This document shows, piece by piece, positions 24,260 through 26,213 of a stretch of DNA of 64,000 nt. How positions within the stretch are numbered: the stretch's first letter is position 1; every line of letters starts with the position of its first letter. Below the pieces are notes generated by a model. The model worked only from the letters and a program-made list of their open reading frames with translations. It ran no database searches and was not told the origin of the DNA. Position numbers and translations under genes: made by a program. This stretch comes from Escherichia virus TH42: sequence record MT446413.1, one strand, 5' to 3'.

Positions 24260-25318
24260 ATGGCAAATCCAACTTTATTTGTATCTTACGACCAGAACGG
24301 TAAAAAACTTTCTTTTGCTAACTGGATTTCTGTCCTCTCTCCGCAAGATACTCCGTTTGTGTCTATGACTGGTAAAGAGTCTATCAACCAGACTATTTTC
24401 AGCTGGCAGACCGATGCACTGGCAAGTGTTGATGCTAACAACGCACACGTTGAAGGCTCTCGCGCTGATGACGGTGAAATGCAACCGACTGTTATCAAAT
24501 CTAACGTAACTCAGATCCTGCGTAAAGTAGTTCGTGTTTCTGATACTGCTAACACCACCGCTAACTACGGTCGTGGTCGTGAACTGATGTATCAGCTGGA
24601 GAAGAAAGGTAAAGAGATTAAACGTGACCTCGAGAAAATCTTGCTGTCCGGTCAGGCTCGTACCGACGTTCTGGCTGACCAGTATCTGACTAACTCAGCA
24701 GCTGATCCTGCTCTGGCTGGTCTGAATGACACTCATGCAGCTCGTAAGACTGGTGCTTTCCAGTTCCTGTGTGCCCATGGTGGTCTGTCTGGTAGCGTTG
24801 TTGATAAGACTAAGAACGGTCCTGCTGACCCGGATACCGGTGCAGTAACTGTTAAAGTTGCACAGAACGCATCTAACCCTACCACTAACGTAGGTTTTGA
24901 TGAAGCAGATATCTTTGATATGACCCTTCAGCTGTATACCGCAGGTTCTGAAGCTGATATCATCATGATTAACCCTGCTCACGCTAGCGTTTTCGCTAAG
25001 CTGCAGGAAAACTCTGTTGGTTCTCGTCAGCGTATCTTTGAGAACACTAAACAATTCATCTACGAAGTTAATAGCATCACCGACCCGCTGGGTCAGAGTT
25101 ATAAAATCATCGTTAACCGTTGGATGCCTACTGATGCAGTTTACTTCTTCCGTAGCTCTGATTGGACGCAGATGGTTCTTCGTGCACCGAAGCGTACTGA
25201 ACTGGCTAAAGACGGTTCTTACGAGAAGTGGATGATCGAGATGGAAGTTGGTCTGCGTCACCGCAACCCGTATGCTTCCGGTGTTCTGTTCACTGCTGCG
25301 GGAAAGGTAGCGGCGTAA
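24260..25318 (+). CDS. major capsid protein
   Basis: 352 aa, strong RBS, head-module position, frameshift signal at 3' end. Confidence 0.75.
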   Translation: MANPTLFVSYDQNGKKLSFANWISVLSPQDTPFVSMTGKESINQTIFSWQTDALASVDANNAHVEGSRADDGEMQPTVIKSNVTQILRKVVRVSDTANTTANYGRGRELMYQLEKKGKEIKRDLEKILLSGQARTDVLADQYLTNSAADPALAGLNDTHAARKTGAFQFLCAHGGLSGSVVDKTKNGPADPDTGAVTVKVAQNASNPTTNVGFDEADIFDMTLQLYTAGSEADIIMINPAHASVFAKLQENSVGSRQRIFENTKQFIYEVNSITDPLGQSYKIIVNRWMPTDAVYFFRSSDWTQMVLRAPKRTELAKDGSYEKWMIEMEVGLRHRNPYASGVLFTAAGKVAA

Positions 25319-25339
25319 CAGTTGACAGCGTAACTGTTA
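25300..25339 (+). promoter_or_regulatory. programmed -1 ribosomal frameshift signal
   Basis: Slippery heptamer G_GGA_AAG (X_XXY_YYZ in capsid frame) at 25300-25306, 10 nt before capsid stop; 7-bp hairpin AACAGTT/AACTGTT at 25318-25339. Confidence 0.55.
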
Positions 25340-26121
25340 GCCCTGCGTCAGTGGCAAGTCTACTGACCGGGGCTACCCAACAGTTTACAGCTCAAGCAGA
25401 ACTAAGCGACGGCTCCACATCAACTACTGGCTTTGATTGGTCAGTATCCGGTGGTGGGGCTATTTCTGCTTCTGGACTGTTCACTGCTCCGGGTTCGCCT
25501 CAAACCGCTGATATCACAGTGACTGCTACGCTTAAAGGTGTATCAAGTACTGCCGTTATTTCGGAAATTAAAGCTCCAATCCCTGACCCAGCTTCCATTG
25601 CTGTAACTGGGGGTGGTCTAACTGGTGATACTCTCACCATAACTGTTCCAGATGCTACCAGCCTGACTGCTTCTGTATCTCCTGCTGGTGCACCTCAAGG
25701 TGTTACTTGGGAAATTGCAGATCCGACTAAGGCTACGGTAACAACTGCTGGTCGTGTAACTGCTGTTGCAGCAGGTAGCACTACCCTTACAGTTAAATCT
25801 TCTACTAAACCTTCTGTCACTAAAGTGATTAATGTTGTTGTCAACCCCCAGCCTCCAACTATCGCGGCTAAAGCTGCTATTACTGGAAAATCTGGTGGAG
25901 ACAGTGTCGCTTTTACAGACATGTTTACTGTTCAACGCTCAGCTGCTAGTGACTATAATTTTGTAGTAACTCCATCTGCTGCTGGTACAGTGAATGCTGC
26001 TGGTCAGCTCACTTTAGCTGGTACGGCTAGCGGTAACGTAACTGTTAAAGCTACTCATAAAACTCAGACCTCAGTAACTGCAACTTCTACTATCACTGTT
26101 GTGGAATCAGGGTTACCCTGA
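25300..26121 (+). CDS. Ig-like domain C-terminal extension of capsid protein (-1 frameshift product)
   Basis: -1 frame is open from the slippery site to 26121; Thr/Ser/Val/Ala-rich beta-strand-like sequence typical of Ig-like decoration domains; the Met at 25228 lies inside the capsid gene and is unlikely to be an independent start. Confidence 0.55.
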   Translation, partial: GKGSGVTVDSVTVSPASVASLLTGATQQFTAQAELSDGSTSTTGFDWSVSGGGAISASGLFTAPGSPQTADITVTATLKGVSSTAVISEIKAPIPDPASIAVTGGGLTGDTLTITVPDATSLTASVSPAGAPQGVTWEIADPTKATVTTAGRVTAVAAGSTTLTVKSSTKPSVTKVINVVVNPQPPTIAAKAAITGKSGGDSVAFTDMFTVQRSAASDYNFVVTPSAAGTVNAAGQLTLAGTASGNVTVKATHKTQTSVTATSTITVVESGLP

Positions 26122-26183
26122 GAACTGACCTAGGTTCTACAGTGTTCAAAACTTACACCATTAAATCTGGTGCTTAAAACTAA

Positions 26184-26213
26184 GGCTGCCTTCGGGTGGC
26201 CTTTTCTCATTTT
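26184..26213 (+). terminator. rho-independent terminator after capsid/Ig gene
   Basis: GGCUGCC-UUCG-GGUGGCC followed by UUUUCUCAUUUU. Confidence 0.6.

Follow-up and report, generated by a model that had tools for sequence, protein, structure and literature searches.

A predicted -1 frameshift extending the major capsid protein of Escherichia virus TH42 with Ig-like domains

The 3' end of the capsid gene of Escherichia virus TH42 is overlapped, in the -1 frame, by an open reading frame for Ig-like domains, which raises the question of whether this frame is a gene of its own or an extension of the capsid protein, reached by ribosomes slipping just before the capsid stop codon. The stretch analyzed here, referred to as the window, comprises 64,000 nucleotides of sequence record MT446413.1. 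Its source is a phiEco32-like E. coli podophage (Gordonclarkvirinae: Kuravirus/Suseptimavirus-like), and the order along the window (portal, small ORF, scaffold, capsid, extension) is the same as in phiEco32, SU10 and Bas88, which share 87-97% nucleotide identity with it; no tRNA genes were found in the 64-kb window. With a probability of roughly 92%, we consider that a -1 slip before the stop of the capsid gene yields a minor capsid isoform of 620 aa carrying three Ig-like domains. The features on which this reading is built are the following:

24260-25318, + strand: major capsid protein gene in the zero frame, 352 aa, stop codon TAA at 25316-25318 (ORF list and translation)
25300-25306, + strand: slippery heptamer G_GGA_AAG in the zero-frame register, at Gly348-Lys349 (direct reading)
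25306-26121, + strand: -1 frame extension, 271 sense codons and TGA at 26119-26121
26182-26213, + strand: intrinsic terminator-like hairpin with T-run, closing the capsid/extension transcription unit; the SU10 record has a terminator annotated at the equivalent place

The capsid gene and its slippery heptamer

The capsid protein matches the Pfam profile PF17236 (SU10_MCP) with E = 1e-78 and 265 bits (cut-off 24.1) and the SU10 major head protein (PDB 7z45) with E = 7.5e-227, and shares 95-99% amino-acid identity with the capsid proteins of Kuravirus. Direct reading and the ORF list both place its end at 25318, as given in the preliminary description. The zero-frame codons at the slip site are GCG GGA AAG GTA GCG GCG TAA, with the heptamer starting at the last G of GCG; since GGA and AAG are zero-frame codons at 25300-25306, the register of the heptamer is X_XXY_YYZ. 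Its position and register had thus been described correctly, but its distance to the stop codon is 9 nt and not 10.

GGGAAAG is unvaried in all 20 related loci carrying the heptamer (sequences of Kuravirus, Suseptimavirus and Privateervirus), among which the flanking codons and the distance from heptamer to stop (0, 9, 12 or 15 nt) differ. Glycine is encoded 23 times in the capsid gene, by GGT in 21 cases and by GGC and GGA once each, and the sole GGA is that of the heptamer. Related loci conserve the shift site more strictly than its amino acids demand. GGGAAAG shows no enrichment over the whole window (10 copies, with 6.85 expected). The long ORFs of the window contain 32 in-register X_XXY_YYZ heptamers, of which only the one at 25300-25306 precedes a long -1 ORF, with 271 codons compared to 59 for the next best. 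The sequence G_GGA_AAG has a documented strong tendency to shift in E. coli (PMC5009743). Direct reading of the 20 nt before the heptamer revealed no dnaX-type Shine-Dalgarno-like element. Transcriptional slippage was considered as well and rejected because the longest homopolymer run is only A3/G3, which is too short.

In regard to the mechanism, most ribosomes would stop at the TAA at 25316-25318 and release the 352-aa capsid protein, while a minority would slip by -1 on the heptamer, with the tRNA-Gly in the P site re-pairing from GGA to GGG and the tRNA-Lys in the A site from AAG to AAA. A stem-loop at 25316-25339 probably aids the slip, and an adjoining hairpin at 25347-25367 perhaps does so too. 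Shifted ribosomes would pass the stop and append a Gly/Ser linker and three Big_2-type Ig-like domains, giving the 620-aa minor isoform. This form would co-assemble into the prolate head with its Ig-like domains on the surface, where they would presumably adhere weakly to carbohydrate or other surfaces. Judging from the identical heptamer of lambda, the efficiency of the TH42 site could be about 4%.

The -1 frame extension and its possible independent start

The -1 frame (that of position 25306) is open from 25210 to the TGA at 26119-26121. The 273 open codons of the preliminary description are reproduced if the re-paired GGG and AAA are counted with the 271 sense codons past the slip, and its estimate of about 620 aa for the fusion corresponds to 349 + 271 = 620 aa; a predicted peptide spanning the junction is TAAGKGSGVTVDSVTVSPASVASL. 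The extension consists of a Gly/Ser linker (GSG) followed by three tandem Ig-like domains. A comparison of the extension with Big_2 profiles, suggested beforehand as a check, gave a Pfam match with E = 4.8e-15 and 55.7 bits for the whole extension. The individual domains, read against the curated Pfam gathering threshold of 22.8 bits for Big_2 (PF02368), are:

25321-25530, + strand: Ig-like domain 1 (Big_2), PF02368 at 23.6 bits, E = 5.2e-5, above the threshold (residues 6-75 of segment 25306-25590)
25606-25824, + strand: Ig-like domain 2 (Big_2), PF02368 at 39.1 bits, E = 7.5e-10, above the threshold (residues 6-78 of segment 25591-25848)
25879-26082, + strand: Ig-like domain 3, Big_2-like, PF02368 at 18.7 bits, E = 0.0018, below the threshold of 22.8 bits

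Domain 3 shares homology with the domain repeated in Bas87, Bas88 and the metagenome contig L031. This domain occurs in 1-3 tandem copies in relatives; the TH42 window retains a single copy, and Tandem Repeats Finder detected no DNA-level tandem repeat in its extension. Modeling the 271-aa extension with AlphaFold2 from the single sequence gave an all-beta structure of low confidence (mean pLDDT 43). In the alignment of relatives, 81% of the third positions of the -1 frame vary, compared to 44% at positions 1 and 2, and this third-position variation begins immediately past the capsid stop. The -1 frame is protein-coding from the slip site onward.

Such a coding frame could still be translated as a separate gene, either from its own start (GTG at 25351 or 25228) or by termination-reinitiation past the capsid stop; its product would then be a free protein with a decorating or accessory role. 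Public annotations present it as a stand-alone CDS (phiEco32 gp12, SU10 gp10, Bas88_0006, ES17 gp012 and others), and the structural paper on SU10 regards gp10 as possibly a separate minor capsid protein lost in purification (PMC9509320). However, the annotated starts disagree among records and none of them is a conserved codon: GTG 25351 of the window is replaced by TTA, GTT, GTA or ATG in relatives, and the annotated GTG start of phiEco32 is GTA in the window. No ATG is available in the window as a start candidate for the extension ORF, and no Shine-Dalgarno sequence precedes any of its candidate starts, where the predicted duplexes with the anti-SD reach -3.4, +1.3 and +0.6 kcal/mol, compared to -5.9 to -10.2 kcal/mol at real gene starts. 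The start at 25228 lies inside the capsid gene, as had been pointed out, yet its codon is GTG and not the ATG of the Met assumed there. The coding signature and the conserved beginning G-x-G-VTVDSVTVSP start at the slip site, upstream of all annotated starts, and in Privateervirus the stop abuts the heptamer while the first annotated start is located about 60 codons inside the conserved -1 ORF. Finally, a larger capsid form was found in relatives by mass spectrometry or SDS-PAGE (PMC4281155, PMC7881722). We therefore regard a separate gene as highly improbable, in agreement with the earlier view that independent initiation is unlikely, the candidate starts having neither a Shine-Dalgarno sequence nor conservation. 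The programmed -1 frameshift proposed in the preliminary description is supported, since register, conservation, coding and starts, i.e. every testable prediction at the sequence level, came out in its favor.

RNA structure downstream of the heptamer

Two adjoining structures can be drawn in the RNA past the slip site:

25307-25346, + strand: stem-loop 1, putative stimulator of the frameshift, its upper hairpin lying 9 nt from the heptamer (folding)
25347-25367, + strand: hairpin 2, GUCAGUGG / CUACUGAC, 8 bp with a 5-nt loop, abutting stem-loop 1

A hairpin 3' of the heptamer had been anticipated and is present, but it occupies 25316-25339, 9 nt away and with 9 bp, instead of starting at 25318, 11 nt away and with 7 bp. 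This upper hairpin pairs UAACAGUUG with UAACUGUUA (9 bp including one G-U, 6-nt loop) and contains a 7-bp core (25316-25322 / 25333-25339), while the lower stem of stem-loop 1 is formed by 25307-25314 and 25340-25346. The fold of 25307-25346, over 39 nt, reaches -14.9 kcal/mol (z = -2.7), a value matched by 2 of 200 shuffles. The structures were compared in 17 Kuravirus-like sequences, of the roughly 100 Kuravirus-like genomes, and stem-loop 1 was found in all 17, at -9 to -26 kcal/mol. According to the RNAalifold consensus and pair counts, the core of hairpin 1 is without variation, and hairpin 1 consequently gives no covariation support; changes in the lower stem are confined to one-sided G-U/G-C exchanges. 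None of the four synonymous sites of the core (25317, 25320, 25335 and 25338) varies, compared to the 81% of third positions that vary overall.

Hairpin 2 has 92% of cells paired across the alignment. Its pair 25350-25364 occurs as U-A (6), A-U (5) and G-C (2), which is compensatory, and the pair 25351-25363 as G-C (7) and U-G (4). This covariation links a synonymous third position of Ser with a non-synonymous second position (L/E/Q/P), and represents just 2-3 independent events in closely related genomes. The hairpin begins 40 nt past the heptamer, a long distance for a stimulator of the classical kind. A stimulatory role of both hairpins is putative.

The SU10 paper proposed a stem-loop around the heptamer instead, CTGCTGC-GGGAAAG-GxxGCGG (PMC4281155). 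An enclosing stem of this kind, 7 bp long in the window, is found in most relatives as well; several have a weaker version, and Bas93 has lost it. We rejected it as a stimulator because of this loss and because its 5' arm would sit inside the ribosome during slippage.

It is conceivable, at somewhat less than even odds, that Kuravirus-like phages combine a conserved two-hairpin frameshift signal with an extension that behaves as a rapidly reshuffled cassette. The signal (25307-25346 and 25347-25367) may sit within the linker and the first Ig strand, and may be upheld by synonymous-site constraint and compensatory changes, replacing the enclosing stem of SU10. Reshuffling of the cassette may involve 1-3 copies of the repeat domain, presence or absence of the terminal domain, and swaps between the Big_2 and I-set families, and gene duplication, as in 7-11-like phages, may be an alternative evolutionary solution to the recoded cassette. 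We found neither the two-hairpin signal nor the cassette reshuffling described in the accessible literature.

Variation of the extension and related systems

The frameshift between capsid and Ig-like domains at GGGAAAG is already published for this group, and TH42 is one more member. The same heptamer was reported for phiEco32 (2008, here through later citing papers), SU10 (2014), Privateer (2021) and YF01 (2023). For SU10, slippage on GGGAAAG fusing the capsid protein to an Ig-like domain was proposed "as in phiEco32", and mass spectrometry identified capsid forms of 38.5 and 55.4 kDa (PMC4281155). Two capsid forms are also attributed to phiEco32 (Savalia 2008, as cited in PMC4281155 and PMC7881722), both forms were detected in Privateer virions (PMC7881722), and the isoform extended in the -1 frame is held to be general for the group (PMC9965538). 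Two protein forms are therefore known from the literature on close relatives, and by analogy would be expected in TH42 virions. The cryo-EM reconstruction of SU10 contains no density for the extension (PMC9509320). In this phage the -1 frame has a stop 11 codons in, in agreement with PMC9965538, and SU10 consequently amounts to a natural knock-out and does not contradict the frameshift.

The loci of phiEco32 (gp11-gp12), SU10 (gp9-gp10) and YF01 (gp8) resemble that of TH42 in the homologous PF17236 capsid (94-99% aa), the GGGAAAG heptamer and the -1 direction. Kuravirus-like relatives share the heptamer, which lies 9-15 nt ahead of the natural stop, as well as the same hairpin core, the homologous linker GxGVTVDSVTVSP and the first Big_2 domain; the sole difference is the length of the payload, including the deletion of the terminal domain in TH42 and its remnant:

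26112-26177, + strand: remnant, now out of frame, of the extension's ancestral C-terminus (VTLRTDLGSTVFKTYTIKSGA, followed by a stop), left by a net 238-nt deletion

This remnant matches the end of the TH43 ORF at 97% identity, in a different frame, and the net loss of 238 nt removed the terminal domain of the TH42 extension. The same junction and remnant were found in L031, the one match in metagenome_contigs, while viral_contigs gave no match to the junction. L031 is roughly 91-94% identical to the window and differs in repeat number; the truncated allele has thus persisted and diversified. The number of extra -1 codons is 271 in TH42, 11 in SU10, 178-180 in phiEco32 and NJ01 and 217 in TH34, and the longer extensions have 370 (TH43, EK010), 455 (Bas87) and 541 (Bas88); about 540 extra codons are reported for YF01 and Paul (PMC9965538). 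Given the SU10 knock-out, the TH42 truncation and the short extension of TH34, the extension is dispensable and often eroded.

Such erosion could mean that slip site and extension are an evolutionary relic in TH42, with low-level shifting and a truncated, unselected three-domain product in decay. The terminal domain is gone from the window through an out-of-frame deletion, the -1 frame stops after 11 codons in SU10 and after 217 in TH34, and SU10, whose capsid is uniform, is fully viable (PMC9509320, PMC9965538). On the other hand, the three remaining Ig-like domains are intact, and the concentration of substitutions at third positions is a sign of purifying selection on the extension. The deletion junction leaves domain 3 whole, and its presence in L031 speaks for an allele that has lasted; the heptamer is invariant, and so are the synonymous sites of the hairpin. 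A decaying relic is accordingly very unlikely, and a functional frameshift remains the preferred reading.

Comparable arrangements are found beyond the closest relatives. Proteus phage Privateer and other Privateervirus sequences have a homologous capsid (about 57% aa), GGGAAAG and a -1 shift into Ig-like domains (PMC7881722), but their stop directly follows the heptamer (GCG GGA AAG TAA), and their extension, an I-set/Ig_3 and a Big_2 domain, is unrelated in sequence to that of TH42. In more distant C3 podophages (43-66% capsid identity) an Ig-like ORF likewise lies in the -1 frame over the capsid stop, with shift sites C_CCA_AAA or GUA_AAG and Ig families Big_2 and I-set/Ig_3, and a further locus (L015) has A_AAA_AAG followed by merely a short Pro-rich -1 tail. 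The T3/T7 10A/10B system, as outlined in PMC5009743 and PMC9965538, also has a -1 frameshift in the 3'-terminal part of a podophage major capsid gene and a minor C-terminally extended capsid protein in the head, Ig-like in T3, but its capsid family is not closely related and the T7 site is of the G_GU type. T7, moreover, requires a distant 3' element and has a short extension that is not Ig-like (PMC5009743). Lambda G/GT has the identical G_GGA_AAG with a stop just downstream, decoded by E. coli tRNA-Gly and tRNA-Lys(UUU) with a shift frequency of about 4%, although its product is a tail assembly chaperone, an assembly factor and not a protein displayed on the virion surface (PMC3296357). In lambda G/GT the heptamer is reported to act as the sole element of the signal. 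The 7-11-like C3 podophages (GAP52, SeKF_80, BUCT695) also possess a plain and an Ig-tailed capsid protein, both homologous to that of TH42 (about 55% aa). There, however, no recoding is involved; the capsid gene has undergone duplication, and its second copy carries the Ig-like domains in frame.

The TH42 case leaves the knowledge of recoding unchanged, and its main value is in annotation, where the evidence favors one capsid gene with a ribosomal-slippage join. In most GenBank records of the group, those of the nearest relatives included, the Ig-like ORF is still entered as a gene of its own, beginning at an arbitrary GTG or ATG. Ig-like domains displayed on the capsid, an arrangement that may hold here together with an adhesive function, are candidates for adherence to mucus or other surfaces. 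Kuraviruses such as ES17 are under study for gut phage therapy, and knowing for each isolate whether the extension is full, truncated or null could help to interpret differences in behavior.

Slip site and coding status of the -1 frame

The region 24260-26121 shares 87-97% nucleotide identity with phiEco32-like E. coli podophages, phage StefiGeyer_Bas88 being the top match (97.4%); these phages are members of the Gordonclarkvirinae (Kuravirus/Suseptimavirus), a group of prolate C3 morphotype. The gene order, which runs portal, small ORF, scaffold, capsid, Ig ORF, virion protein and tail fibre, is shared with phiEco32, SU10, ShigP1 and Bas88. The capsid product also matches the solved SU10 major head protein 7z45 (E = 7.5e-227).

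24260-25318, + strand: capsid protein, 352 aa (Pfam SU10_MCP, E = 1e-78)

At the slip site the zero-frame codons read GCG GGA AAG GTA GCG GCG TAA, the last G of GCG opening the heptamer, so GGGAAAG (25300-25306) is a correctly phased X_XXY_YYZ sequence. The register given in the preliminary description was thus right, while the stop lies 9 nt after the heptamer and not 10. Past a -1 slip, reading continues as GGT AGC GGC GTA ACA... for 271 sense codons up to TGA (26119-26121), and the fusion measures 349 + 271 = 620 aa, the size previously estimated. The extension consists of three tandem Ig-like domains, with Big_2 scores of 23.6, 39.1 and 18.7 bits for successive thirds, the last being under the Pfam cut-off of 22.8 bits.

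Counted as a word over the whole window, GGGAAAG shows no enrichment (10 copies vs 6.85 expected). Among 32 in-register X_XXY_YYZ sites within long ORFs, only the capsid site is followed by a long -1 ORF (271 codons; the runner-up has 59). Glycine is encoded by GGT in 21 of 23 cases in the capsid gene, and the sole GGA is that of the heptamer. GGGAAAG is unchanged in all 20 loci having it, from Kuravirus, Suseptimavirus and the 57%-identical Privateervirus, while the codons 3' of it differ and the stop is 0, 9, 12 or 15 nt away. G_GGA_AAG is documented as highly shift-prone in E. coli (PMC5009743), and the identical heptamer is the slip site of lambda G/GT, where about 4% shift (PMC3296357).

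In an alignment of 17 distinct Kuravirus-like sequences, zero-frame third positions 5' of the slip vary in 52% of cases vs 5% at positions 1 and 2. On the 3' side of the capsid stop, -1-frame third positions vary in 81% vs 44% at positions 1 and 2, and the remaining two phases give 50% and 39%. This third-position pattern and the conserved peptide G-x-G-VTVDSVTVSP start right after the heptamer, ahead of every possible start codon.

The alternative, that the Ig-like ORF is initiated independently, corresponds to its presentation in the GenBank records of relatives (L001-L004, L023-L029), where it appears as an independent CDS and a ribosomal-slippage join is absent from all records examined. 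The annotated starts are unconserved, however, lying 12, 33 or 127 nt past the capsid stop depending on the record, and the GTG start annotated in phiEco32 corresponds to GTA in the window. In the ShigP1 record, the capsid and extension pieces are both labelled 'major head protein'. There is no ATG in the -1 frame near the junction. Before the GTG codons at 25228, 25351 and 25519, pairing with the anti-Shine-Dalgarno sequence amounts to -3.4, +1.3 and +0.6 kcal/mol, compared with -5.9 to -10.2 kcal/mol for six genuine gene starts nearby. The position of GTG 25351 is occupied in relatives by TTA, GTT, GTA or ATG. Independent initiation is therefore unlikely, as had been supposed.

Register, the -1 coding signature, heptamer conservation and the lack of an independent start uphold the proposed programmed -1 frameshift fusing the capsid protein to Ig-like domains, to which we assign a probability of about 0.9. 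The biology itself is already known. For SU10, slippage at GGGAAAG joining the capsid protein to the Ig-like domain was proposed, as in phiEco32, and forms of 38.5 and 55.4 kDa were detected by mass spectrometry (PMC4281155). The YF01 paper presents short and -1 extended capsid isoforms as common to 'YF01 and other group phages', giving the heptamer, the extension sizes and a premature stop in SU10 (PMC9965538), which we reproduced (11-codon extension). Privateer carries the same signal, with both protein forms in virions (PMC7881722). From these publications and those on E. coli and lambda it follows that the frameshift reading is right but not new.

Two hairpins downstream of the slip site

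A 7-bp hairpin 11 nt downstream had been described; the hairpin exists, at 25316-25339, but is slightly larger and closer, with 9 bp, a 6-nt loop and a start 9 nt past the heptamer. It can be extended to 25307-25346 (-14.9 kcal/mol, z = -2.7), and a downstream hairpin is present in 17/17 Kuravirus-like sequences. Its 7-bp core (25316-25322/25333-25339) is constant across 13 distinct sequences and therefore gives no covariation; all four synonymous sites of the core (25317, 25320, 25335, 25338) are invariant, and 81% of synonymous sites in the surrounding region vary. The lower stem exhibits one-sided G-U/G-C changes only. The stem proposed in the SU10 paper to enclose the slip site is not universal among the 17 sequences.

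A second hairpin (25347-25367) directly adjoins the first and is mentioned neither in the literature examined nor in the preliminary description. It is paired in 92% of cells, with all slid controls far lower, and shows compensatory changes, one pair being seen as U-A, A-U or G-C and another as either G-C or U-G. The covarying pair couples a silent Ser third position to a non-synonymous L/E/Q/P second position, a link that the protein sequence does not readily account for. Since the sequences are close relatives with few independent events (2-3), we rate this covariation as suggestive.

A truncated extension in the window

Compared with TH43 and EK010, whose extensions have 370 codons, 256 nt are replaced in the window by 18 unrelated nt (26094-26111), a net loss of 238 nt. 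The terminal Ig-like domain is lost and the frame shifted, and therefore the extension ends in TATSTITVVESGLP before its stop. Two features follow:

26112-26177: remnant of the ancestral C-terminus, VTLRTDLGSTVFKTYTIKSGA and stop, out of frame, 97% identity to TH43
26182-26213: strong intrinsic terminator-like hairpin, AAGGCUGCC-UUCG-GGUGGCCUU and T-run, just past the ancestral extension stop; corresponds to a terminator annotated in SU10

The metagenome contig OERH01003596.1 (91-94% identical) has the same deletion junction and remnant, so the window allele is natural and no assembly error. Its 443-codon extension holds three copies of the repeat domain vs one in the window, hence repeat number varies independently. 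Extensions of 11, 178-180, 217, 271, 370, 443, 455 and 541 codons were found. TH34, whose record is flagged UNVERIFIED, shares 99.7% capsid identity with the window, but its extension departs after some 65 codons and is cut short at 217 codons, within the terminal domain; the cause is a further natural truncation or else an error in sequencing.

Other shift sites, other routes and possible function

Among capsid homologues at 43-66% identity, the -1 frame again carries an Ig-like ORF that spans the capsid stop; the shift sites are different ones, and the Ig families vary (Big_2 or I-set/Ig_3). C_CCA_AAA occurs in phage PJNS034; in the Aeromonas Lahexavirus group a non-canonical CTG AAG GTA AAG is conserved, with a GC-rich hairpin after it. 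A_AAA_AAG is found in one metagenomic contig, but the -1 frame there comprises just 42 Pro-rich codons. In five Lahexavirus-like sequences (L010-L013, L030), the capsid ends CTG AAG GTA AAG GCG TAA (about 4400-4460 in L010) and lacks a canonical X_XXY_YYZ heptamer; the -1 frame is open over only the last 20 capsid codons and then for 89-170 codons into Ig-like domains, confirmed by Pfam in L010 and L013. The hairpin GCGCCC-CUAC-GGGCGU lies 6 nt past AAG in L010-L012, and no equivalent is evident in L013. Judged from sequence, G_GUA_AAG or A_AAG may be a non-canonical shift site here. The LAh_8 annotation lists the -1 ORF on its own, as a 'tail protein'.

The 7-11-like C3 podophages GAP52, SeKF_80 and BUCT695 differ in having two tandem capsid paralogues, the second without a frameshift site and with in-frame C-terminal Ig-like domains; this duplication is an alternative path to the same product pair. 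Such variety of shift sites, Ig families and duplicated capsids agrees with the view, already published, that illegitimate recombination spreads Ig-like domains and that chance decides whether they are expressed in frame or through a frameshift (PMC5009743).

SU10 is a natural extension null and builds a normal prolate head (PMC9509320, PMC9965538), so the extension is dispensable for head shape and viability. By analogy with the general literature, the Ig-like domains would contribute to surface adhesion (PMC5009743; Fraser et al. 2006 as cited in PMC9965538). In the mucin-binding Kuravirus ES17, the heptamer is intact and the Ig-like capsid extension runs to 178 codons. A tail fibre 'not containing an Ig-like fold' was credited with its mucus tropism (PMC7885116), and we found no discussion of the capsid extension in that paper.

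What is new here is modest: a conserved pair of hairpins 3' of the slip site, a payload that varies like a cassette (the truncated allele of the window being one case), and an extension that is widely mis-annotated as a gene of its own.
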